Of a stretch of DNA of 64,000 nucleotides, positions 49,728 through 62,540 are shown one piece after another. Positions within the stretch are counted from its first letter, which is position 1. Each line of letters starts with the position of its first letter. The stretch is taken from assembly GCA_000092065.1 (NCBI GenBank), contig CP000589.1; one strand, 5' to 3'. The notes beneath the pieces were generated by a model. The model saw only the letters and a program-made list of their open reading frames with translations, was not told where the DNA came from and made no database searches. A program made the translations under genes and the position numbers. This stretch comes from Ostreococcus lucimarinus (lineage: Eukaryota).

Positions 49728-52700
49728 ATGCGACGCGCCGCGCACGCACTAAAACAAAGCGCGACAACTCTCACTACGCACACATCGCACGCGAACGCGC
49801 CCTCGCGCGCGCGTTTCGCGGTAAAGAACGCCGTCGTCGACGGATTCGGTCGACGCATTCAGGGTGGGAATTGTCGACGCGAATTCTCGCTAACGATGGC
49901 GCACGCGGTGCGCGCGAGCGCGATACACGCGCAGGACGCGCGAGTGAATGAACGACTTTCCGCAGCGCGCGCGGGACGCGGACGAAGGGCGTACGCGGTG
50001 CGCGCGGGGACGTCGCGGGGACTCGACGATCGGCGACGGACGGCGACGACGAGCGCCGCGAGCTCGACGACTCGATGGGCGTTCGGACGACAGTACGCGA
50101 TTTCGCCCGCGAGTCAAGAGGCGAGTGAGATGGAGGATGATTCGGGAGGAGAAAGCGACGAGGATAGCGATGAAGATCTCACGGGTGAGTACCGAGGGGC
50201 GGTGCTGGTGCGTTCGAATGGCCAGAAAGGCTTGGCGACGACAAATAGGACAAACAACGGCCGGATCGGTGGGAGCTGGAAAAAGGCGCTGGGAGATTTC
50301 GACGTGAGAACGAACGGGGCGATGACGGTGAATGGGGCGAAGGGAGATGCCAAGGTAACGGATGATGATGAAATCGCGACGGGATTACGAGACGAGGTGC
50401 AGACGGTTGAGACGGTGGAGGAAGCGAGGCGAGTGTTGAAGATATTGCTCGACAACGCCGGAACCGAGGATCAACCGATGTATCACGCGTGTGATACCGA
50501 AGTTGCGTACATAAGCGTCGCGGATCAAACGCCTGTTGGCCACGGGCAAGTTACGTGCTTCTCCGTCTACGTAGGACCGGATGTCAACTTCGCTCCCGAA
50601 GGCGAAAGCAAGAGGAGTTTGTTGTGGGTCGACACCTTGCGTGGTGGCGACGGCGTTTGGGAGGTGTTCAAGGAGTACTTTGAGAACGCAAACGTCAAGA
50701 AAGTTTGGCACAACTATAGCTTCGATCGCCACGTAGTGGAGAACCATCACGGCATCAAACTCGCCGGGTTCGCGGCGGATACCATGCACATGGCACGTCT
50801 ATGGAACTCAAACAGAAAACTCGACGGTGGCTACAGCTTGGAAGCTTTGTCTTCGAGCGCAGACGCAATGAGCGAATGCGCTGAGATGCTCGGTGCGGGA
50901 GCGGAGATGATGCGTGCGAAAAGAGGTATGAAGAAAATCTTTGGCAAGCCCAAGCTCAAAAAGGATGGGACTCCTGGGAAGACGATGATTCTGCCACCGA
51001 TTGAAGAAATTCAAGAAGCTCGCGATTCGCGTGATAGATGGATTGAGTACTCCGCGCTCGACGCGCAAGCGACGTGGTTCTTGCGCGAATCTCTCGAAGC
51101 GAAACTCCGCGGGATGTCGTGCGAAGCGTGTCCGATTTTGGCGAGCAAGCCTGGATACCGCAAGTGCGTCACGCTTTGGGACTTTTACACGTTCTACCTC
51201 GCCGAATTCGGCAATTTGTTGACGCAGATGGAACGAAATGGCCTTCTTGTCGATAAAGCTCATTTGGCGCACGCGGAGAAGATGGCGCACGAAGATAAGC
51301 GCGTGGCGGAAGACTACTTTAGAAACTGGGCTGCTTCGAAATGCGAAGGCGCGCGAATCATGAATGTCGGTTCAGGGTTGCAAGTTCGTCAGCTTTTATT
51401 CGCCGGTGCGAAGAACAAGCGTCGTGACAAACCTGGGGTTGAGCTCACCCGCGAGTTCACGCAAGAGTCTTCCGAATGGATCGCTTGGGATGCCGCCGGT
51501 CGAGAAGGCAAGGCGCCGAAGAAGACGATGAAGGTTGCTCTTCACGGTATCACGGTGAAGCCGATCCAAGTGCAGACGTTCACCGCAACTGGACTTCCTG
51601 CTGTCAGCAGTGTTGTTCTGCGCGCTCTTGCGGGCAAACCTGGCGCCGCTCGCGCCATCATGGATACTTGGGACTCGCTCGCGGACGCCGAGAAAACCGA
51701 AGATGTGTTGAAGAAGGCGTGCGGCACCGCATTTGAAGCCTTTGGCGGCGGTAAAGAGGGCGTACAAGCGTGTGCCGCTATCGATGCGTTGAACGACGTG
51801 GCGGCCATCGACACTTTATTGTCGAACTTTATCATTCCTCTGCAAGGGGATGATATTCGTGGACCCGAAGGCCGCGTGCACGGCGCGCTGAACATCAACA
51901 CCGAGACCGGACGCCTATCCGCTCGTCGGCCGAGTTTGCAAAATCAGCCCGCGCTCGAAAAGGACCGTTATGGTATCCGTAAGGCGTTCACCGCGGGGCC
52001 TGGGAATATTCTCGTCGTCGCCGATTATGGTCAGCTCGAGCTTCGCCTTTTGGCGCACATGGCTGATTGTAAGTCGATGCAAGAAGCCTTTGAAGCCGGC
52101 GGCGATTTCCACAGCCGAACGGCGCTCGGAATGTACTCCAACATTAAGGAAGCCATCGATAAGGGCGAAGTTGTCTTGGAATACGGCGAACAAGAGGAAA
52201 CCGTGGACGAGAAAGATCGCCCTGCGCTCGTAAAGGATGTGTTCGCGAGCGAACGTCGCAAGGCCAAGGTACTCAACTTCAGTATCGCATACGGCAAAAC
52301 TGCGCACGGCTTGGCGAAGGATTGGGGCACGTCTCTCGAGGAAGCCGCCAACACGGTTGAGCTTTGGTACGCCGACCGCCCAGAAGTTCGAGAATGGCAA
52401 GAAGTGCAGAAGAAGATGGCGGTGGAAAAGAACCTGGTGCGCACCCTCCTCGGGCGCGTTCGCAACTTACCCGACGCCTCGAGCAAGAACGAAGCCTTCA
52501 AATCGCACGCGCTTCGCGCATCCATCAACACCCCGATTCAAGGCGGCGCCGCCGACATCGCCATGTTAGCCATGCTTCAGATTCAACGCTGTCCACGCCT
52601 AAAAGAGCTCGGTTACAAGCTCTTGATGCAAATTCACGACGAAGTCATCTTAGAAGGTCCCGAAGAGCACAAAGATGAGGCGTTGGCGCTCACCAAGTAT

Positions 52701-52796
52701 CACATGGAGAACCCATTTCCCGGCCACGTCAACTTGTTGAACGTCGCGCTAGCCGTCGACGGCGATTACGCCAAGACGTGGTACGAGGCTAAATAA
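49728..52796 (+). CDS. POP: Family-A DNA polymerase of the plant-organellar type (POP / PolI-like with 3'-5' exonuclease domain)
   Basis: Exo I HACDTEV and Exo II WHNYSFDRHV are followed by a polymerase domain. Motif A is DYGQLELRLLAH, motif B is RRKAKVLNFSIAYGKT and motif C is LLMQIHDEVILE. ATG at 49728 verified. The N-terminal ~150 residues are a presequence-like extension with an acidic patch. Confidence 0.9.
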   Translation: MRRAAHALKQSATTLTTHTSHANAPSRARFAVKNAVVDGFGRRIQGGNCRREFSLTMAHAVRASAIHAQDARVNERLSAARAGRGRRAYAVRAGTSRGLDDRRRTATTSAASSTTRWAFGRQYAISPASQEASEMEDDSGGESDEDSDEDLTGEYRGAVLVRSNGQKGLATTNRTNNGRIGGSWKKALGDFDVRTNGAMTVNGAKGDAKVTDDDEIATGLRDEVQTVETVEEARRVLKILLDNAGTEDQPMYHACDTEVAYISVADQTPVGHGQVTCFSVYVGPDVNFAPEGESKRSLLWVDTLRGGDGVWEVFKEYFENANVKKVWHNYSFDRHVVENHHGIKLAGFAADTMHMARLWNSNRKLDGGYSLEALSSSADAMSECAEMLGAGAEMMRAKRGMKKIFGKPKLKKDGTPGKTMILPPIEEIQEARDSRDRWIEYSALDAQATWFLRESLEAKLRGMSCEACPILASKPGYRKCVTLWDFYTFYLAEFGNLLTQMERNGLLVDKAHLAHAEKMAHEDKRVAEDYFRNWAASKCEGARIMNVGSGLQVRQLLFAGAKNKRRDKPGVELTREFTQESSEWIAWDAAGREGKAPKKTMKVALHGITVKPIQVQTFTATGLPAVSSVVLRALAGKPGAARAIMDTWDSLADAEKTEDVLKKACGTAFEAFGGGKEGVQACAAIDALNDVAAIDTLLSNFIIPLQGDDIRGPEGRVHGALNINTETGRLSARRPSLQNQPALEKDRYGIRKAFTAGPGNILVVADYGQLELRLLAHMADCKSMQEAFEAGGDFHSRTALGMYSNIKEAIDKGEVVLEYGEQEETVDEKDRPALVKDVFASERRKAKVLNFSIAYGKTAHGLAKDWGTSLEEAANTVELWYADRPEVREWQEVQKKMAVEKNLVRTLLGRVRNLPDASSKNEAFKSHALRASINTPIQGGAADIAMLAMLQIQRCPRLKELGYKLLMQIHDEVILEGPEEHKDEALALTKYHMENPFPGHVNLLNVALAVDGDYAKTWYEAK

Positions 52797-52828
52797 GTAG
52801 TGAACGTCGCTCTTTCGCTTCGTTCGTT

Positions 52829-52833
52829 TGTAA
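52829..52833 (+). promoter_or_regulatory. TGTAA motif about 35 nt past the organellar DNA polymerase stop (candidate poly(A) signal)
   Basis: cgttcgtttgTGTAAatcactt read directly. Confidence 0.3.
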
Positions 52834-52931
52834 ATCACTTAGCTTTCACTCAAATGACCCTCAGCCTCGAAAGTCGACGCTGAGTGCGCCAGTCATCAGA
52901 CCAAACCTTACATTTTGCCTCGGCGCGCGCC

Positions 52932-55823
52932 ATGTCCGCGCCTGAATGGCACGGCTACGCCGATGGCGCGAATGGTGACGATCCCTACACCGCTGCCGCG
53001 CGATCGTACGACGAGACGCACGCGACGAGCGACGCGAACGCCGACGCCACGCTGCAATCAGACTTCGAGCACATGTCGATCAACCACGCGCACACACTCG
53101 TCCACGATCTACTGGACGAGGACGATGACGAGGAGTACGACTACGTCGACGGGGAGCACGCCGGCGGTGCGCGACGGAGCGAGTTCGCGTGCGCGTACTG
53201 TGGGATATCCAACGTCTCGTGCGTGGCGCAGTGCGTGAAGACAAAGAAATGGTTTTGCAACGGGCGATCGAATGGATTGCCGGCGAGCTGCTTGATATAT
53301 CATCTCGTGCGGTCAAGAAACAAGGAGGTTCGACTGCATGAGTCGTCGCCGCTGGGCGATATGACGCTGGAGTGTTACGTGACGGGGGCGACGAACGTGT
53401 TCAACCTCGGGTTCGTCCCGTGCAAAGACGAAAACGTGGTGGTTCTCGTGACGAGAGAAGCAGCGCAGAGTAATCCGGCAACTCTTAAGGAATTGAATTT
53501 AGACTTAGCGCTCTGGGAGCCGCTGATTCAGGACAAGGTGTTCTTGCCTTGGTTGTTGCAGATGCCGGACAAGAAGGAGATTGATCGCGCTCGGCCGGTG
53601 AACCCAGGAAAAGTCATCAAATTGGAGGAACTATGGAAAACAAATCCCGAGGCTACGCTAGACGACGTAGAGAACGATGACGGTGACGGCGAGGTACGTC
53701 CTGTAGCGCTGACGTACGAGGACGCGCATTTATACCAAGGCGTCTTTGGACCGTTGATACAGCTCGAGGCAGATTACGACAAGGCGCAGCGAGAGAGCCA
53801 AACGAAGGACGACGTCACAGTCCGCTGGGACATTGGCTTGAATAAGCGTAGGATTGCGTATTTCAGTTTTGGTGCCGATGAAAATGCGGTGTCAGTGACG
53901 TTGGGAGATTCTTTGCAGTTGCGACTGCTGATACAGACAAAGAACGAACAGCGAAGTTGGCAAGGACAAGGCGTCGTGATCAAGTTCACCGCACAAGAGG
54001 AAGTCGGGGTGGAAATGTACGGCATGGATGCCCCCGTGGAATACACCAATGGCTACAGTGTCGACTTTTTGTGGAAAGGGACGAGTTATGAGCGCGCGCA
54101 ACAGGCGTTGGAATCTTTCGCTGAAGATGAAACTTCGGTTTCGGGGTACATTTACCTCAAGCTCATGGGCAAAGACCCGGAAGATATGTTCTTATCCGGA
54201 GATTTTCCGAAGAAGTTAACCGCCCCGGGGCTGCCTGAGCTCAACCAAAGCCAACACGATGCGGTTAAAACGGTCCTCCAGCGACCACTGAGTCTAGTTC
54301 AAGGTCCACCGGGGACTGGGAAGACGGTGACGTCGGCGACGCTCGTGTACCATTTAGCCAAGCGCGGCAACGGTCAAGTCATCGTGTGCGCGCCATCAAA
54401 CGTCGCAGTAGATCATTTGGCCGAGAAGATCGAAAAGACGGGCCTAAAAGTCGTTAGAATCAGTAGTAGAAGTAGAGAGCATTTGGTGTCTTCGGTTGAG
54501 CACCTGACGCTGCACTATCAAGTAGCCAACATTGGTGGGTCGACGCACAAAGCGTTTCAGAAGTTGCAGCAGCTGAAGAACGAGCTCGGCGAATTGAGCG
54601 CTGGAGACGAGAAGAAGTATCGCAACGCTCAAAAGAAACTTGAGCGCGAAATCCTCGAGAACGCGGATGTCATTTGCACCACAGCAGTCGGTGCCGGTGA
54701 TCCGCGACTCGCAAACTTCCGCTTCCGCATGGTGCTCATCGATGAGTCGACGCAAGCCACCGAACCGGAGTGTTTGATCCCAATCGTCATGGGTGCGAAA
54801 CAAGTCGTCATGGTTGGCGATCACAAACAGCTCGGCCCGGTTGTGACGTGCAAGCAAGCGTACGCCGCGGGTCTGGCGCAGTCGTTGTTTGAACGCCTCA
54901 TTGCGCTCGGTATACAGCCCATCCGCTTACAGATTCAGTATCGTATGCATCCATGCCTGTCCGAGTTTCCGAGCAATACATTCTACGATGGAACGCTGCA
55001 AAACGGTGTGTCTGCGATCGAACGAACGCTTTCACACATCGACTTTCCTTGGCCCGTACCATCCAAACCGATGATGTTTTGGAGTCAAACCGGACAAGAA
55101 GAAATGAGCGCGAGCGGGACGTCATTCCTCAATCGCGCGGAGGCGTCGGCGGTCGAAAAGTGCGTCACGCATCTGCTGAACGCCGGGGTGAGTCCTGAAC
55201 AGATCGGGGTGGTGACGCCGTACGAAGGACAGCGCGCGTACGTGGTACAACACATGACGCGTGTTGGTGTGCTGCATCCGCAACTGTACAAGGACATTCA
55301 AGTCGCAAGTGTCGACTCGTTCCAAGGAAAAGAAAAAGACTTCATTATTATGACCTGCGTGCGCTCGAATGAAAAGTCTGGAATTGGGTTCTTGAGCGAT
55401 CCAAGACGTTTGAACGTCGCCATAACACGCGCGCGAAGTGGGCTTATCGTCATCGGCAATCCAAAGGTTTTGAACAAACAACACCTATTCCACGAGATGT
55501 TAACGCACTTCAGAGAGAACGGGTGCCTCGTTGAAGGGACGTTAGGCTCATTAAAGGAGTGCATGGTGGCCCTTCCTGCCGAACACCCGGACAAGGACCC
55601 TTGGAAGCGATTCGAATCGCGCCAAAATGGTGGTCGCGACCGTCGAGCCGCGGCGGAGCAGCGCGCACAGCACGAATTTCCAGACCTCGCCGCCGCCTAC
55701 GGGCGCTTTGGAAACTATCGCGACATCGATTCCGAGTCCGAGGCTTCCTACGGGAGCGAGTACTCCTACCAACCGCCGAGCGAAATCGATCACGGTTCGT
55801 CCCGAAACGCGTACGAGTTTTAA
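52932..55823 (+). CDS. UPF1: UPF1 (regulator of nonsense transcripts 1) superfamily-1 RNA helicase
   Basis: CH zinc-knuckle domain EFACAYCGISNVSCVAQCVKTKKWFCNGRS...ASCLIYHLVRSRNKEV. Helicase motifs [33 protein letters not shown] and VI RLNVAITRARSGLIVIGN. The track start 52884 is GTG. The ATG is at 52932. Confidence 0.95.
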   Translation: MSAPEWHGYADGANGDDPYTAAARSYDETHATSDANADATLQSDFEHMSINHAHTLVHDLLDEDDDEEYDYVDGEHAGGARRSEFACAYCGISNVSCVAQCVKTKKWFCNGRSNGLPASCLIYHLVRSRNKEVRLHESSPLGDMTLECYVTGATNVFNLGFVPCKDENVVVLVTREAAQSNPATLKELNLDLALWEPLIQDKVFLPWLLQMPDKKEIDRARPVNPGKVIKLEELWKTNPEATLDDVENDDGDGEVRPVALTYEDAHLYQGVFGPLIQLEADYDKAQRESQTKDDVTVRWDIGLNKRRIAYFSFGADENAVSVTLGDSLQLRLLIQTKNEQRSWQGQGVVIKFTAQEEVGVEMYGMDAPVEYTNGYSVDFLWKGTSYERAQQALESFAEDETSVSGYIYLKLMGKDPEDMFLSGDFPKKLTAPGLPELNQSQHDAVKTVLQRPLSLVQGPPGTGKTVTSATLVYHLAKRGNGQVIVCAPSNVAVDHLAEKIEKTGLKVVRISSRSREHLVSSVEHLTLHYQVANIGGSTHKAFQKLQQLKNELGELSAGDEKKYRNAQKKLEREILENADVICTTAVGAGDPRLANFRFRMVLIDESTQATEPECLIPIVMGAKQVVMVGDHKQLGPVVTCKQAYAAGLAQSLFERLIALGIQPIRLQIQYRMHPCLSEFPSNTFYDGTLQNGVSAIERTLSHIDFPWPVPSKPMMFWSQTGQEEMSASGTSFLNRAEASAVEKCVTHLLNAGVSPEQIGVVTPYEGQRAYVVQHMTRVGVLHPQLYKDIQVASVDSFQGKEKDFIIMTCVRSNEKSGIGFLSDPRRLNVAITRARSGLIVIGNPKVLNKQHLFHEMLTHFRENGCLVEGTLGSLKECMVALPAEHPDKDPWKRFESRQNGGRDRRAAAEQRAQHEFPDLAAAYGRFGNYRDIDSESEASYGSEYSYQPPSEIDHGSSRNAYEF

Positions 55824-55851
55824 TGCAGTTCTGACGCCGACACATCGCGGC

Positions 55852-57303
55852 ATGCCCCCGATCCCGCGATGTCTCCTCACGACCACCGACCCGAGCGCGC
55901 TGAACCAGGCCGACTTACCGCGCCCCTCTGTGTCGTCCGTGTCGTCCGAGTCGGAAACGGCGTCGGAATCGCCGTCGACGTCTCGCCGAGACGAAAAGTT
56001 GAGCGGGACGGTGCCGAACCTGTTTTGGCGCGCCGTCGCCATGGATGACCTTCGCGCGGCGCGAAACTTCGTAGGATTACCGGAAGAGTCGCAGGTGACG
56101 TTAGCAGGGGCGAAATCATTCGCGTACGTGCGTCAGGGCACGGAGGTCTGGGACGCGTTGCACGATGGCCGCCTGACGACGGGAGTCCTTAAAGCGGCGC
56201 TCGGCTTCGTTGAAGATGGTGTCGATAAACGCGCGCTAGGACTCGGCAAGCGGCACGGTGGACACAACGCGATATTGAGTGCATGCCGTCGATTGCAACG
56301 AGAAAAGTGGTGCGATGACGACGAAGTGGGGGACGTAGCAGACGCGAGACGTCGAAACGAAGCGGCGACGGCGGCGTTTAATCGACAGATAGACGGGGAC
56401 GATGACGACGAGACTGAAGATGAATGTGACGATGTCGGACTATGCGATGATAGTGCCGGCGAACTGTTGAGCGGCGTTGGATCGAACGCGTCGGCGATGG
56501 ATATCTTGGCGGCGTCTCTGGCGTCGGCAGCCAAGAAGAAGACATCGAAGAAAGGGAAGAAGAAGAAGAAACGTGGGAGCGGGAAGAAGAACAGAGTCGC
56601 GGGCGATAGCTCCATGCTCACGAACGCGCAGTACTCTCGAGCGCTCGCGCGAGGTGGAGAGCACGCCATACGCTTAGCGTGGGGATCAGCGCAGGAAGCG
56701 TCGACGCTTTGTTCCATGATGGTTCATTTCAAAGGATCCACTGTGTACGAAGCCGGGCTGTGCATGCTCGATGCTGCATCAGACGTTCCAAAAGCGTGGG
56801 GCGTTGGTCCACTCCCACCCGTCGGCGCCAGCCCGGACGGATTGATAACCATGGCGAGCGGTGAACGTTTTGTGGTCGAGGTGAAGAATTCATCGCCGTT
56901 TCGCCAAATGCCAGGTCGATACGTTGTCGCCGACCGCGAGCCGTATGCCAAACCACCCGCGTATCACATGCCTCAAGTTCAATTAGAGATGCTCTGCACG
57001 GGGACGCGCTCAGCGTTATTGGCGATGCAAAGTATGACGTACGGAATAAAAATATTTCGCGTCGAGCGAGACGACGACTTCATAGCGAGTATGCTCCGGA
57101 GAATTTCGCGTCTGTACACCACGTACGCGCGTAAGGGTAAAGACCCACCCATGAACTGGGAGGTTCGATCGATAGAACACAAGAAAATGGTGGGCGCTGC
57201 CGTTCGACTCGCTGGCGCAGCAACGGTGTACGATCACATTCCTACGTCTTTAGTTCCTAACGATGGATCGATTCATGTCGAAGAGAACGCCTTCGTCGCG
57301 TAA
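55852..57303 (+). CDS. YqaJ/lambda-exonuclease-like (PD-(D/E)XK) nuclease-domain protein with long N-terminal extension and Lys-rich linker
   Basis: The C-terminal about 200 aa run WGSAQEASTLCSMM...GASPDGLITMASGERFVVEVKNSSP...PPAYHMPQVQLEMLCTGTRSALLAMQ...GIKIFRV. These fit the YqaJ viral-recombinase-type exonuclease pattern (D...E.K...Q.Q). The first ATG in frame is 55852, just after the UPF1 stop. The upstream portion of the track ORF overlaps the UPF1 3' end. Confidence 0.55.
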   Translation: MPPIPRCLLTTTDPSALNQADLPRPSVSSVSSESETASESPSTSRRDEKLSGTVPNLFWRAVAMDDLRAARNFVGLPEESQVTLAGAKSFAYVRQGTEVWDALHDGRLTTGVLKAALGFVEDGVDKRALGLGKRHGGHNAILSACRRLQREKWCDDDEVGDVADARRRNEAATAAFNRQIDGDDDDETEDECDDVGLCDDSAGELLSGVGSNASAMDILAASLASAAKKKTSKKGKKKKKRGSGKKNRVAGDSSMLTNAQYSRALARGGEHAIRLAWGSAQEASTLCSMMVHFKGSTVYEAGLCMLDAASDVPKAWGVGPLPPVGASPDGLITMASGERFVVEVKNSSPFRQMPGRYVVADREPYAKPPAYHMPQVQLEMLCTGTRSALLAMQSMTYGIKIFRVERDDDFIASMLRRISRLYTTYARKGKDPPMNWEVRSIEHKKMVGAAVRLAGAATVYDHIPTSLVPNDGSIHVEENAFVA

Positions 57304-57328
57304 GGGCGGTATTGTTTTTTTTCCTAGC

Positions 57329-57353
57329 TTACAGTTAGAATTGCAGAGTGTAA
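57329..57353. promoter_or_regulatory. Convergent 3' ends of the YqaJ-nuclease gene (+) and MFS transporter (-) with TGTAA on each strand (ttaca 57329-33; tgtaa 57349-53)
   Basis: AT-richer 150-bp spacer tagcTTACAgttagaattgcagagTGTAAaattt between two stop codons. Confidence 0.3.
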
Positions 57354-57453
57354 AATTTGTTACGCGCGGCTATCTAGATTGTACAGACTCCATATTAATG
57401 AGTTCATTAAGCGATTGATTCGCTGCACGTCGGCAGTGTGTAACATTTGTCGT

Positions 57454-59160
57454 TTACGCATAAGCGACCTCCCCCTCGTCTGTCGATTTACGCTCGTCAT
57501 CGTCCGTGTCAGCGTCCAAATACTTGGGGTTCGTCGATGCGAGCATGGTGACGATTGAAAGCGCGCTGAGAACAGCGAGCGTGACGAAAAGTGCGCCCCA
57601 TCCGTACTTTTCAGCGATCACCGCGGTAAGCGCGCCTTGCAGCACGGCGCCGACTGATCCCATACCGTTCACCACACCCGCTGCGGTTCCGAGAACTTCT
57701 TGGCCGTAACCCGCTTGTTCGCAGCAGTCAGAGACTGCGGTCGAACCCAGCATAGCGTCGGGACCGGCGACTAAGAAACCGATGAGACCCATGACGATGG
57801 CGTTGGTGAGCATTCCCATGCTGCATGCCGTTTGGTAGCCCCCGATCGCAAAAGTGAGCAAGGCGCACGACAACGCGCCGAGCACCGTGCGCTTGCCTTC
57901 GAAATACTTGTCACCAATAATGCCGCACGCGAGTCCTCCCAGTACGCCGCCCAAATCGTATATGCACGACATGTAGCCAGCAATGGCGACGGACATCTTG
58001 TACTCTTGCGATAAATAAAATGGCAACCAGAAAAGCAAACAATAACGAACGATCTTCACGAAGAAGTAGGACAGCATGAGCATCTTTAACCTAGGGATGG
58101 CCAAAATTTCCATGAAGGAAACATTTTTGGACGCCGGCTCGATGTCCGCGCGCTTCTTCGTCGACGTCAAAGCTTCTTGCTTATACGTCGTCGTTTGCAA
58201 CCACGGCGGATCGAGCTGCATCGCGGCGACGAGCGCCGCAGTACACAAAGCGAATGTCGCCGGCAAACTAATCGACAGTCTCCATCCAACCTTACCCAAT
58301 AAAAATGCGGTGGCAACGGTAGCCAGCGTCGCGCCGACTTGTTGGCTCGTCGCCCAAATCCCCATCGCCGTTCCTCGCTCCTTCGAACTGAACCACGGAT
58401 TGAGGAGCTTCACGTGTAACGGATACGATGCGGCTTGCGCGAGACCATTCAACGCCCACAGCCCCATGAGAATGTACGGCACCGAGATATATCCAAAAGC
58501 GAGACAACAGGCAAACGACACCACGCCGCCGACGACGATGACCGCCTTCGCGCCAATCTTATCCCCAATCGAAGGCATCACAAACTGCCCCAGCGCATAC
58601 GTGAGCAAAAACGCACTGTCGATTAACCCCATCGTCCCCGTGGTGAGCCCGAGCGCTTCCTTGACCGGCGCCTTCACCACGCTCAACGGCTTGCGCACAA
58701 AGTACGCCGACGAGTACGAAATAAACATCCCAGCAAGCGTCAACCGCTGCAACCGCGTCACCTCCGAACGAGGAAACTCTTCCTCGATCACCGTTCCCGG
58801 TTTACATTCCTCTCCGGCGCTTTCCCACAGGCATTCATCGTCTTCGGGCGGGAAAGTATACGTGACCGCCTCCTCCAGCGCCGTCGCCGCAGTCGCCTCG
58901 GGTTCTCCCGCGTCCCTCACCACCTCGTCCGCCGCCGCGCGCGTCCCCGCGTCGCGTCGTCGACGCGCGCGTACGATTTCGTGCGTTCCGCGCGTCTGTG
59001 CCCTCGACGGCGTCCTTCGCGGCGCGTCCAGCGCGCCGCGAACGCTTCGAGCGCGCGGGATCGCGGCGACCCGTTTCTCCGCTCGACGCGCTCGCGACGC
59101 GCGCGCGGGCGCGGCGCGCGATCGATCGACCGCGCGCGGCGCGGACGCGAGCGCGAGCAT
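57454..59160 (-). CDS. MFS transporter of the organophosphate:phosphate antiporter (GlpT/UhpC, glycerol-3-phosphate permease-like) family
   Basis: Twelve TM helices. The TM1 region LAGMFISYSSAYFVRKPLSVVK and the loop GLIDSAFLLTYALGQFV are GlpT-like. An Arg-rich N-terminal extension of about 130 aa is present. ATG verified at 59160. Confidence 0.75.
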   Translation of the reverse strand: MLALASAPRAVDRSRAAPARASRARRAEKRVAAIPRARSVRGALDAPRRTPSRAQTRGTHEIVRARRRRDAGTRAAADEVVRDAGEPEATAATALEEAVTYTFPPEDDECLWESAGEECKPGTVIEEEFPRSEVTRLQRLTLAGMFISYSSAYFVRKPLSVVKAPVKEALGLTTGTMGLIDSAFLLTYALGQFVMPSIGDKIGAKAVIVVGGVVSFACCLAFGYISVPYILMGLWALNGLAQAASYPLHVKLLNPWFSSKERGTAMGIWATSQQVGATLATVATAFLLGKVGWRLSISLPATFALCTAALVAAMQLDPPWLQTTTYKQEALTSTKKRADIEPASKNVSFMEILAIPRLKMLMLSYFFVKIVRYCLLFWLPFYLSQEYKMSVAIAGYMSCIYDLGGVLGGLACGIIGDKYFEGKRTVLGALSCALLTFAIGGYQTACSMGMLTNAIVMGLIGFLVAGPDAMLGSTAVSDCCEQAGYGQEVLGTAAGVVNGMGSVGAVLQGALTAVIAEKYGWGALFVTLAVLSALSIVTMLASTNPKYLDADTDDDERKSTDEGEVAYA

Positions 59161-59355
59161 CGCGCTCGGCGTCCGCGTGAGCGCGCGAGTGGTGGGCGCG
59201 CGCGCGAGCGTGTGCGGGAGGCGAGTGACGGCGATAACCTCGAACGACGCGCTTTTTGATCTTTACCTCTTCGCGTCTCGCGGCGCGAGGGCGGATTCGC
59301 GGATGATTACAACGCGTACAAGACGAAAAGATCGCGCGAGGGCGCGAAGAGAGGA

Positions 59356-61656
59356 CTAACGCGCGTTGCGCGGTTTGGGGATGGCGACGCCGCTGCGAGT
59401 GCGAGGAAGCTCGGACTGAGGGACGACGCGCGACGCCGGCGGCGAACCGCCGGCGGCGAGATCGGGCGGCGAGCGGACGCCGAGATCGGGTGGAGGTGCG
59501 TGGACGTTTGAGCCGAACATGGACATGCCGGTGGCAAAATGCTGGGAGATTTCGTCGACGGCGTGCGCGGTCGGCGGCGGCGGATTGGATTGGCGCGCCG
59601 GGGCGTCGAAAAATAAGCCGCCGCCGCCGGAGGCGATGCTCGAGAAGACGCCGCCGCCGAGGCCGCCGTTCGAAAAGCCACCGTTGGCCGGAGGGGGTGC
59701 GCCAAACGAAGGTAGCGCCGTTGCCATCGGCATCTGTGGCTGCGGTGGTGGCATCTGCAGCTGCGAAGTCGGACCGAAACCGGGCGGTAGGCCGCGCTGT
59801 TGCTGCGGCTGTTGCTGCGGCTGCCCAAACAAACTCGCCACCGGGATCTGCGTCGTGCGACCTGGCTGCGGTGGCGGCTGTCCCTGTTGCATGTGCTGCT
59901 GGATTTTTGCTTGTTCCATGCGCAAAAGCTCTTGCTGCCGTCGCAGCAACAACATCTGCTGCTCGCTCGGTTGCGACTGGTCTCGCTGCGCCTCCGCTTG
60001 CACCTGTCGTTGACGCGTCAACATCGCCAAAATCTCCTCCGCCGACGCTCCTGGCGCGACTTGTCTGCCGAGCATATCCAACGTGTGTTCATTGAGCGAC
60101 TTTGCTGGCTGTTGAAGCATCACAGGTGGGCCTTGAGGAGGTCGCGGTGCTCCCGGCAACCCCGGCGGCTGCGGCGCGCCGCCCATGCCGGGGAGCGTCG
60201 GTCTGAGACGCGCCAAGACTTCGGATGGTACGCTCTTATCACCGAGCAAGCACAGTAACGAGCGCATGAACTGTACGTTGTCCGTGGCGTGCAGCATCTT
60301 GGATATATCTGCACACGCCGCAGGAAAAGCGTTCAACACGTAATCTCTCGTGCGCATTTGAACCGCTCGAGCGACGTTGTCGCCGGCGGCAAACGGATCT
60401 TCCACACCGAGTGGATATTTGAACGCTTGCCAAGAGCTACCGACGATGAACGTACCATGATACGTGGACGCGTTCACCGCGTTCCGAAACAAATCTTTGA
60501 TGGCGCACAAGTGCGCGAAGAAGCTCACAAAGAGTTCCGCGAGCGTCTCGGTGTTTTCCTTTCCGAAACCCGCGAACTTATCGGCGCGGTACTTTACCGC
60601 CGCGATGTCCCTCGATGCATCACTCACGACGCGAGCTTTACTAACTTTCCAAGTATCGAACTGGTCGTCCTCACTTTTCAAATGCTCCTCGAGTTCGCGC
60701 TTTTCCGATTCCACCAAATCGGGACGAGGAAGCGTGAGCAGCATCGTCGGCGGCAGAATTGGCACTGGTCGGCGCTGCAAATGATGCATACAAAGCAAAC
60801 ACAACGAGTACGAGTTGAACGATCCCTCCATGGCGTTGTTCACATCGTAATGCTTGGCCCAAAGCTTTATCAAGAACACCAAGTCGCGATAACGTTGATC
60901 GATATCCGCGACGACGCCGAGCACGGCGCTCTTGTACACCCCGTCGTTCTCGATGCACACATCGCACGCGACGCCCGTCTGCGGGTCTTTGAACTTGATC
61001 AAAGGCACCCGAGCCTTGGAGATGAGTTGGACGTCGCGGTAATTGCGATACCGCAACTCCGAGGCGACTTTGCGCAACAATTGCGCGCGTTTCGTTCGAC
61101 CCTGGCGCTGTTGTCGACGCGCGCGCACCCCGCCCCGCTGCGATCGGCGCGCCTGCGCTTCTTCCTTTTCATCGTACCACGGTCCATTCTTGTCTATCTG
61201 CAGCGAAATATCTATATCGCTCCCCGCCGAGTGAAACGCGCTCACGTACGACCCAAACGGCGCCACCCGCACGCCCTCGAACCGCGTGCTGATCATCGTT
61301 TTAAACTTATTCATCAGCGCCTGTCGCTTCGCATCGTCCTGCGGCGTCGTCTTCAACGAATTCACTATCCTACGCAACTCCGAGTCTAACTTTTCCATCG
61401 CCTCTCGCGTCGGCGTCCCCGCGCTCGTCCCCGCGCTCGCCTCCTCGCGCGCCTCCTCGCCCCATCGCCCGTCCCCGTCCGTCGTCACGCGCGCGTCCGC
61501 CATCGCGATCCTCGCCCGCACGCGTCCCAGCACCGTCGCCGGCGACACCCACTCCCGCGGATCCCGCGCGTCGTCGTCCTCCTCCTCGCGCGCGTCCGCC
61601 TCCTCGTCCGAGCGCCCGTCGCTCGACGACCGCGCGTCCTCCTCGCGCGTCGACAT
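59356..61656 (-). CDS. Cid1/GLD2/TRF4-family non-canonical poly(A) polymerase or terminal uridylyltransferase with Gln/Pro-rich C-terminal low-complexity tail
   Basis: Nucleotidyltransferase core FGSYVSAFHSAGSDIDISL (GS...DxD) and PAP/25A-associated domain (VFLIKLWAKHY...NSYSLCLLCMHHLQ). The track start 62052 is GTG. The ATG (MSTREED) is at 61656. Confidence 0.8.
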   Translation of the reverse strand: MSTREEDARSSSDGRSDEEADAREEEDDDARDPREWVSPATVLGRVRARIAMADARVTTDGDGRWGEEAREEASAGTSAGTPTREAMEKLDSELRRIVNSLKTTPQDDAKRQALMNKFKTMISTRFEGVRVAPFGSYVSAFHSAGSDIDISLQIDKNGPWYDEKEEAQARRSQRGGVRARRQQRQGRTKRAQLLRKVASELRYRNYRDVQLISKARVPLIKFKDPQTGVACDVCIENDGVYKSAVLGVVADIDQRYRDLVFLIKLWAKHYDVNNAMEGSFNSYSLCLLCMHHLQRRPVPILPPTMLLTLPRPDLVESEKRELEEHLKSEDDQFDTWKVSKARVVSDASRDIAAVKYRADKFAGFGKENTETLAELFVSFFAHLCAIKDLFRNAVNASTYHGTFIVGSSWQAFKYPLGVEDPFAAGDNVARAVQMRTRDYVLNAFPAACADISKMLHATDNVQFMRSLLCLLGDKSVPSEVLARLRPTLPGMGGAPQPPGLPGAPRPPQGPPVMLQQPAKSLNEHTLDMLGRQVAPGASAEEILAMLTRQRQVQAEAQRDQSQPSEQQMLLLRRQQELLRMEQAKIQQHMQQGQPPPQPGRTTQIPVASLFGQPQQQPQQQRGLPPGFGPTSQLQMPPPQPQMPMATALPSFGAPPPANGGFSNGGLGGGVFSSIASGGGGLFFDAPARQSNPPPPTAHAVDEISQHFATGMSMFGSNVHAPPPDLGVRSPPDLAAGGSPPASRVVPQSELPRTRSGVAIPKPRNAR

Positions 61657-61827
61657 CGCGCCGTCGCCGGCGCCCGCGCCGTCGACGGCCGTCCGTCGCC
61701 GCGCGCGTCGTGTGCGGCGCGTCGCGCCGCGCGCGCGCGGTCGCGCGACCGAATCGTCGATCGGGCGATTGTCGACGACGAGTCGGGACTCGAGCGCGAC
61801 CCCCTCGCGCGCCGCCCTCGTATTCGC

Positions 61828-61975
61828 GCGCGAAAACGTCCGTGCTCGCGAAAACGTCCGTGCTCGCGAAAACGTCGATCGCGCGGACCCGCGCGATCGA
61901 TCGATCGTCGATCGCGCGAAATCGAAAAACCTCGCGCGATCGATCGATCGTCGATCGCGCGATCGATCGCGCGAC
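61828..61975 (+). repeat. Tandem repeats in divergent intergenic region: (CGCGAAAACGTCCGTGCT)x~2.7 then two copies of CGATCGATCGATCGTCGATCGCGCG
   Basis: Read directly in lines 61801-61980. They lie between the poly(A) polymerase start (61656, minus) and the FtsH 5' region. Confidence 0.8.
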
Positions 61976-62540
61976 GTCGTCCGACGGCGTGACGTCGACG
62001 TCACGCGCGACGCGCGCGTCGGCACACACGCGCGCGAGTTTCGACGACGCACGATGCACGCCGCGAGCGCGCGAACGATCGCGACGACCGCGCCGCGGGC
62101 GAATAAAAATGTTTCCGAGCGCCGCGCGCGACGGGGGGCGCACGCGCGACGCGCGGCGGCGAGAGAGGTGCGCGAACGATGCGACGCGACGCGCGATGCG
62201 GGCGCGTGGGGTCGGGGGGGGACGCGACGCGCGATGCAGGCGCGCGCGAACGCGCGCGGGGGACGAAGGCGCGCGAATGCGATGGGGGACGTTTGCGCGA
62301 CGCGAACGGCGGCGCGCGCGGCGGTGGATCGCGCGGGCGTCGTCGGGAAGGGGTGGATAAGCGAGATGACGATGGATGACGACGTGGCCCTGGACCGGGG
62401 CGACGACGCGCGGGCGGGCGGCGACGCTCGCGACGATTGGCGAACGCGGGTGACTGACGGTGATGATTGGGTTTGTGAACGCGTAGGATACGACGAACGA
62501 TGTCGCTAAAGTGGCGGCGACGCTCGCGGCGGTGGCGGCG

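Follow-up and report, generated by a model that had tools for sequence, protein, structure and literature searches.

A lambda-exonuclease/YqaJ-type nuclease encoded beside UPF1 in Ostreococcus lucimarinus, an old host gene of an algal family for which a plastid role is favoured

The DNA analysed here, 64,000 nucleotides of Ostreococcus lucimarinus (contig CP000589.1 of assembly GCA_000092065.1; hereafter the window), contains directly downstream of UPF1 a gene which we assign to the lambda-exonuclease-type nucleases. It is an uninterrupted, intronless open reading frame (ORF) on the plus strand, positions 55852-57303 with the stop codon included, and encodes 483 aa. An earlier note, made from this sequence, had placed the ORF at these positions, had it start 29 nt past the UPF1 stop and read it as a YqaJ/lambda-exonuclease-type PD-(D/E)XK nuclease; in all three respects our results agree with it. 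The UPF1 stop is a TAA at 55821-55823 and the nuclease ATG begins at the 29th base beyond, which leaves a spacer of 28 nt, the shortest head-to-tail spacer among ORF pairs called in the window (the others measure at least 90 nt). The note was wrong in putting the gene between the organellar DNA polymerase and UPF1, as the actual order is PolA(+)-UPF1(+)-nuclease(+)-MFS(-).

Comparison of strains and orthologues indicates that the ATG at 55852 is the true start, since spacer indels break the upstream frame and orthologues of 57-65% identity retain the N-terminal peptide MPPIPRCLLTTTDP. Other strains have contigs with the identical 483-aa protein in which the spacer differs by an 11-14-nt indel, so that an in-frame stop comes to lie 39 nt upstream of the ATG; in a Micromonas-like relative, the stretch from the upstream in-frame stop to the annotated start contains no ATG. 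A longer in-frame ORF from an upstream ATG at 55627 was rejected, because it overlaps UPF1 and its frame is not kept among strains. The spacer measures 39-42 nt in three contigs with the same protein (L001, L002, L004), 44 nt in L013, 67 nt in L014 and 196 nt in the Micromonas-like L005. Synonymous divergence in the first 46 nuclease codons, few as they are, is about 3-4 times below that in the rest of the gene (0.057 versus 0.15-0.26 and 0.57 versus 1.7-2.1 in two comparisons). This suggests a constraint at the nucleotide level, for example from overlap with the UPF1 3' end or from the gene's own promoter or 5' untranslated region.

The family assignment rests on several profiles and on the active site. 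Taken alone, the match to the Pfam YqaJ profile (PF09588) is borderline: the search proposed in the earlier note gave 22.0 bits, exactly the gathering cut-off of 22, with E=2.1e-4 and partial coverage (residues 323-385 on profile positions 89-149 of 150). Compared with the YqaJ/TIGR03033 nucleases of bacteria and phages, the algal protein thus matches the C-terminal half of the YqaJ model at threshold and, unlike in those groups, only half of its family reaches Pfam significance (the profile is matched independently by 22 of 43 homologues). The TIGR03033 score is 14 bits, far under the cut-off of 68, and the profile of herpesvirus and baculovirus alkaline exonucleases (PF01771) does not match the nuclease. 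The phage profile PHROG 434, 'RecE-like recombination exonuclease', covers residues 323-438 with E=2.5e-14. Against PDB, the full-length family profile was marginal (E=0.04) because the alignment was split by an insertion. When the poorly conserved residues 153-267 were cut from a 15-sequence alignment, the resulting trimmed profile matched residues 13-208 of the 226 residues of lambda exonuclease in a single stretch (E=3e-4). The PDB search with the single sequence yielded nothing but a spurious match of a histone to the Lys-rich run. An AlphaFold2 model built from 43 homologues has a mean predicted local distance difference test score (pLDDT) of 82 and a predicted template-modelling score of 0.80, low confidence being confined to residues 1-46, 192-207 and 240-252, and its top matches in the BFVD structure database are phage and baculovirus proteins (E ~1e-4). 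The fold is of the lambda-exonuclease type, and our confidence in both fold and active site is high.

The active site is conserved throughout the family. Alignment with the trimmed profile equates D329, E343, K345 and Q375 with D119, E129, K131 and Q157 of lambda exonuclease, L275 with L78, and W277/G278/E282 with W80/G81/E85, so that the catalytic triad, which the earlier note had singled out for inspection, is intact and the two-metal PD-(D/E)XK site complete. The motifs it had quoted are likewise present: GASPDGL at aa 325-331, VEVK at aa 342-345 and YHMPQVQLEM at aa 371-380. Among the 43 sequences the invariant residues are W100, H104, G106 and T109 in the N-terminal part, R274, W277, G278, E282, E300, G302, G325, P328 and D329 in the middle, and E343, K345, P349, Q375 and G398 towards the C-terminus. 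Nearly the same columns are invariant in more diverse alignments of 20 and 15 sequences, with D329, E343, K345, E282, Q375, G325 and P328 invariant in all three. Residue 275 of the RLAWG motif is Leu or Met, and Cys in a few members of the 43-sequence alignment. According to a review of recombineering exonucleases, Leu-78 of the lambda enzyme is a hydrophobic wedge that unwinds base pairs (PMC11611040).

Lambda exonuclease (Red-alpha; PDB 1avq, 3slp) and its homologue LHK-Exo (3syy) present the same order of motifs, QG..W..L.G.[IL]T, AWG...E, SPDG, E.K and Q.Q, and share with the algal protein the catalytic Asp/Glu/Lys, the equivalents of Glu-85 and Gln-157 and the Leu-78 wedge. Unlike lambda exonuclease, the algal protein carries His in place of Arg-28 (His104, invariant in the 43 sequences, with conservation of 90% or more in the two alignments of greater diversity), an insertion of 55-120 aa before the wedge, and two extras, an N-terminal module of ~45 aa and a C-terminal extension of ~60 aa. 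It also differs in being encoded by a eukaryotic nuclear gene with no annealase adjacent to it. Coordinates of all these parts and of the neighbouring genes are collected in Table 1.

Table 1. Parts of the nuclease gene and genes surrounding it, in window coordinates.
Feature	Position	Strand	Remark
Residues 1-46, disordered Ser/Thr-rich tail	55852..55989	+	AlphaFold2 pLDDT <50
Residues 47-89, family-specific folded N-terminal module (PNLFWRA...LR...F..LP)	55990..56118	+	pLDDT 92-95
Residues 90-150, nuclease domain part one	56119..56301	+	W100/H104/G106/T109 = lambda W24/R28/G30/T33
His104 codon	56161-56163	+	at the position of lambda Arg-28
Residues 151-268, insertion inside the domain	56302..56655	+	directly before the RLAWG wedge motif
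Lys-rich run KKKTSKKGKKKKKRGSGKK, aa 228-246	56533..56589	+	imperfect 27-nt AAG-rich tandem duplication
Residues 269-424, nuclease domain part two	56656..57123	+	pLDDT 91-99
Catalytic PD-(D/E)XK motif GASPDG...VVEVK, aa 325-345	56824..56886	+	invariant residues
Residues 425-483, family-specific C-terminal extension	57124..57300	+	pLDDT 89-98
UPF1-nuclease spacer, 28 nt	55824..55851	+	length polymorphic among strains
PolA (family-A DNA polymerase, putatively organellar)	49728-52796	+
UPF1	52884-55823	+
MFS transporter gene	57454-59160	-
MTPAP-like nucleotidyltransferase gene	59356-62052	-

The protein had been described as a nuclease domain fused to a 280-aa N-terminal region. This is not correct: the domain starts near residue 90 and the charged stretch is an insertion within it, as follows from the match of the conserved block QGTEVWDALHDGRLTTG (residues 95-111) to QGDDAWHKLRLGVITAS of lambda exonuclease (residues 19-35) and from the single-stretch alignment of the trimmed profile. 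The module at residues 47-89 lies outside the aligned stretch and has no counterpart in lambda exonuclease. Its L67, L76 and P77 are nearly invariant among the 43 sequences, and the last two are fully so in the alignments of 20 and 15 sequences. The C-terminal extension, which lies past the end of the lambda exonuclease alignment, consists of a PP.N motif, a helix (441-456), a strand (458-463) and a terminal F-x-x, and is conserved across the family. Some homologues are built differently. The Micromonas-like orthologue P0028, of 596 aa, has the otherwise invariant WGSAQE interrupted by ~50 additional residues (WGSAQ-VRPWAF...SHS-QEHG), which resemble an in-frame intron left unspliced by the gene caller; if so, some Micromonas-type genomes carry an intron inside the nuclease gene. 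In P0014 and P0030, RRM-type domains (PF00076, PF16367) are joined to the nuclease; these could be gene calls merged with a neighbour or real fusions.

The insertion itself has two parts, an acidic block at residues 151-200 (net charge -16) and, after it, a basic block at 201-268 (net +13). The acidic block contains a confidently predicted helix (162-182) that lambda exonuclease lacks. In the alignment the insertion is poorly conserved and variably occupied, with ratios of nonsynonymous to synonymous substitution rates (dN/dS) of 0.43 and 0.19 against two orthologues. The Lys-rich run pointed out in the earlier note is indeed present in the basic block. Its alignment occupancy is just 0.26, and we therefore regard the run, by its distribution, as specific to Mamiellales-like members. 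A strong basic patch, defined as 8 or more K/R within 12 residues, nevertheless recurs among the full-length members (118 of 254). Diatoms, chrysophytes and Mesostigma have it N-terminal to the domain, Mamiellales-type members within the insertion. Since the patch moves in position and yet recurs, it may serve as a DNA tether as readily as a nuclear localisation signal (NLS).

Members of this family are widespread among algae. A profile search run exhaustively over 1.84 billion cluster representatives (50% identity) gave 474 matches at E<1e-30 and 2158 at E<1e-3, and the matches listed span the protein from the N-terminal module through the C-terminal extension. Taxon names come from the best 120-150 matches listed, most of which are unnamed, and for the trimmed-alignment search from the best 120 of 398. 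All named members among the matches listed are green algae or ochrophytes, i.e. plastid-bearing lineages: Chlamydomonas reinhardtii (CHLRE_11g467596v5), Picochlorum and Mesostigma viride on the green side, the chrysophytes Ochromonadaceae sp. CCMP2298 and Chlorochromonas danica, and the diatoms Mayamaea, Fragilaria, Pseudictyota, Cylindrotheca and Chaetoceros. The homologue search with the trimmed alignment worked, whereas a second one with the full-length alignment brought hardly any new sequences, presumably since its candidates were largely taken up by low-complexity words. Among 185,579 prokaryotic species in GTDB (one genome per species), no carrier of the family signature motifs was found. 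The nuclease thus appears, from this distribution, to belong to a eukaryote-only subfamily of green algae and ochrophytes, and the suggestion that its acquisition was ancient and not recent holds as far as age is concerned.

Eukaryotic YqaJ/lambda-exonuclease domains have already been included in surveys of the PD-(D/E)XK superfamily (PMC3424549). UniRef names one diatom member 'YqaJ viral recombinase domain-containing protein' and the others 'hypothetical'. Our literature search found no study of a cellular algal member of the family and no paper characterising a cellular eukaryotic one, in keeping with the remark of the earlier note that most eukaryotic YqaJ proteins are uncharacterised; the main text of a paper on the ochrophyte plastid proteome is silent on the family. 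A parallel in a photosynthetic eukaryote is the land-plant 'phage-related exonuclease' (At1g67660 / Solyc10g081050), likewise YqaJ-type, whose tomato representative occurs in the stromal proteome (PMC10493611). We liken it to the algal protein by description only.

The gene is a vertically inherited, stable host gene of a Mamiellales-type picoalga. At least 24 marine metagenome contigs encode an identical protein flanked by the same genes, and comparison with the contigs L005, L013 and L014 shows the block PolA-UPF1-nuclease-MFS-MTPAP (window 49728-62052) to be conserved from Ostreococcus-like to Micromonas-like genomes. In the Micromonas-like L005 (1363-16074; orthologue 40% identical) PolA has the opposite orientation and the block contains one additional gene. 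A more distant picoalga lacks the block, and there the nuclease has DUF1499 and Vps35 genes as neighbours. Because the linkage is lost there, adjacency to UPF1 and PolA is ordinary synteny among Mamiellales-like genomes and no evidence of a functional link. Whole-gene dN/dS is 0.17 and 0.16 against orthologues divergent by 6% and 31% in amino acids, which rules out a pseudogene, and falls to 0.055 and 0.087 for residues 269-483 against the same two orthologues. The GC content of the gene is that of neighbouring genes. In the window we found no flanking inverted or terminal repeats around the gene and no second copy of it, there is no transposase within 10 kb on either side, and IMG/VR viral contigs yielded no relatives.

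Three observations concern the neighbours. The UPF1 ORF as listed starts with GTG (979 aa), while on identical contigs gene callers prefer an ATG that lies 48 nt further on (963 aa; window 52884-52932). An upstream extension of the MTPAP-like ORF contains a perfect 18-nt tandem repeat in 2.7 copies, CGCGAAAACGTCCGTGCT, at 61829-61876; it encodes TFSRAR repeats, and callers start the gene downstream of it (766 aa versus 898 aa for the ORF). The N-termini of PolA (49728-49862) and MFS (59026-59160, minus strand) are Arg/Ala-rich and nearly acid-free, as in organellar presequences.

Clues to the site of action come from ochrophytes. Forty-five members of the family have a signal-peptide-like N-terminus, and in 34 of them a junction of a small residue and Phe follows directly ('...DLSAYA|FAPP', '...GVEA|FG'), where shuffling leads to 4.9 expected. 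Bipartite plastid presequences of the ASAFAP type are characteristic of algae with red-lineage secondary plastids (PMC4329603). As the junction statistics match this rule, the ochrophyte members are, on the evidence of their sequences, very probably plastid proteins. A further N-terminal element is the short linear motif L-[VI]-P-S-Q-V-[IL], present in 91 copies in 74 of 230 family members (shuffling expects 0.43 members), among them P0313, P0315, P0348, P0361 and P0379, while just one member matches in the rest of the protein. A looser form occurs twice in 37 of 213 members. In several diatom members the motif stands directly after the signal-peptide|Phe junction, and a degenerate copy, MPPIPRCLL, opens the window protein (aa 1-9, 55852-55878). 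The motif could be a docking or processing site.

We suggest that the gene product is a catalytically competent DNA nuclease, metal-dependent and of the PD-(D/E)XK class with the lambda-exonuclease/YqaJ fold, which resects DNA ends in the 5'-to-3' direction, in the plastid if the family as a whole is considered; we hold this reading to be reasonably probable. By analogy with the lambda exonuclease mechanism (PMC11611040), the enzyme would engage a DNA end, the strands would be parted at the Leu275 wedge, and the 5' strand would be hydrolysed; the single-stranded 3' tail so exposed could then serve annealing or strand invasion during recombination or repair. We hold the polarity and the DNA substrate with moderate confidence. 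The insertion, emerging just before the wedge, would lie on the duplex-entry side, and we may speculate that the Lys run holds the duplex there and that the acidic block masks the run. The Lys-rich part would then tether DNA electrostatically and might also direct nuclear import. In the family at large the pathway would most likely be plastid DNA recombination or repair, although we have little confidence in compartment and pathway: the plastid is the favoured site for the family, the nucleus a possible one for the window protein.

Several facts weigh against this proposal. In lambda exonuclease, Arg-28 binds the 5'-phosphate and drives processive movement (PMC11611040); with the nearly invariant His104 at this position, substrate preference, the requirement for a 5'-phosphate and processivity may differ. 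The likewise nearly invariant Arg107, three residues after His104, might serve as a stand-in. About half of the structure predicted to be ordered has no counterpart in lambda exonuclease. No partner annealing protein is encoded next to the nuclease, whose neighbours are UPF1, MFS, PolA and the MTPAP-like gene, but such adjacency is not expected in a eukaryote. Finally, the first 45 residues of the window protein contain 3 K+R, 5 D+E and 16 S+T, being acidic and Ser-rich, while the K+R/D+E counts in the N-termini of its putatively organellar neighbours are 8/1 (PolA) and 12/3 (MFS). An N-terminus so unlike a presequence argues against plastid import in this alga and fits the reading of the Lys run as an NLS.

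Should the run be a classical NLS, the protein would be a nuclear enzyme of DNA repair or recombination in Mamiellales. We regard this as the minority case, yet one to be taken seriously: the KKKTSKKGKKKKKRGSGKK run lies in a disordered loop, comparable basic runs are present in every Ostreococcus-like orthologue and in most Micromonas-like ones, and the N-terminus is devoid of the basic, Arg/Ala-rich character of the organellar presequences in the window. The named relatives, however, all come from plastid-bearing lineages, and ochrophyte orthologues have bipartite plastid presequences, some together with basic patches. Because of this co-occurrence, a basic patch alone does not imply nuclear import. 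The most elaborate form of the plastid proposal would make the protein a phage-derived 5'-end resection nuclease of algal and possibly plant plastids, with His for the 5'-phosphate-binding Arg, a basic DNA tether and an L-V-P-S-Q-V docking motif, imported into ochrophyte plastids and perhaps dually targeted in Mamiellales. We offer it tentatively and think it doubtful as a whole.

The remaining explanations seem much less plausible. YqaJ genes are known from giant viruses (PMC3493329), and their YqaJ-like nucleases (NCVOG1192; mimivirus R354, PDB 5yet) are 14% identical to the algal protein, which here stands in host-gene context. The gene might belong to a mobile element or a giant virus, or be a recent capture from an ISL2EU/Harbinger-type transposon or a YqaJ recombinase of nucleocytoplasmic large DNA viruses. 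ISL2EU transposons reportedly carry a YqaJ nuclease. The eukaryotic YqaJ domain is indeed common to ISL2EU/PHIS elements and the algal family, and the nearest non-family sequence we found, P0299, looks like such a transposon-borne nuclease; its 6.9-kb contig also carries DDE_Tnp_4 and THAP genes at a distance of ~2.6 kb. P0299 is, however, very distant (E=7e-7, versus 1e-90 or better within the family), and unlike ISL2EU/PHIS the algal gene is single-copy in the window, syntenic across genera, and without transposase or terminal repeats. Together with the lack of IMG/VR relatives, the purifying selection and the ordinary GC content, this largely refutes a mobile or viral origin of the present gene, to which we give hardly any credence. 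Some herpesvirus alkaline nucleases degrade RNA, and a nuclease co-transcribed with UPF1 could act in 5'-to-3' RNA decay. The unusually short spacer and the UPF1-nuclease tandem kept in Micromonas-like genomes would fit, but the tandem is lost in another alga and its spacer is far longer in a Micromonas-like genome, the best structural and sequence matches are DNA exonucleases, and ochrophyte plastid presequences are unfit for a cytosolic role in nonsense-mediated decay; we consider it very unlikely. Equally hard to believe as a mobile origin is a host defence nuclease directed at incoming linear double-stranded DNA viruses such as prasinoviruses. Enzymes of the lambda-exonuclease type do attack linear DNA ends, but the gene is not in defence-island context, ochrophyte members have plastid presequences, and strong purifying selection with wide, stable conservation is unlike fast-evolving defence genes.

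Taken together, the gene is a new member of a known enzyme class; it holds nothing surprising for the specialist and does not overturn current understanding. The subfamily has its own unusual traits, namely the internal insertion, the extra modules, His in place of Arg-28 and the N-terminal motif. A phage-type core which tolerates a large charged insertion beside its DNA wedge, along with a swap of the processivity residue, could interest enzymologists. In annotation, 'YqaJ/lambda-exonuclease-family nuclease' can replace 'hypothetical protein'. To our knowledge, the nuclease that resects plastid DNA ends for recombination-dependent replication and repair is poorly defined. A lambda-exonuclease-type enzyme of plastid-bearing algae, with plastid presequences in its diatom members, is a concrete and testable candidate for plastid end resection.

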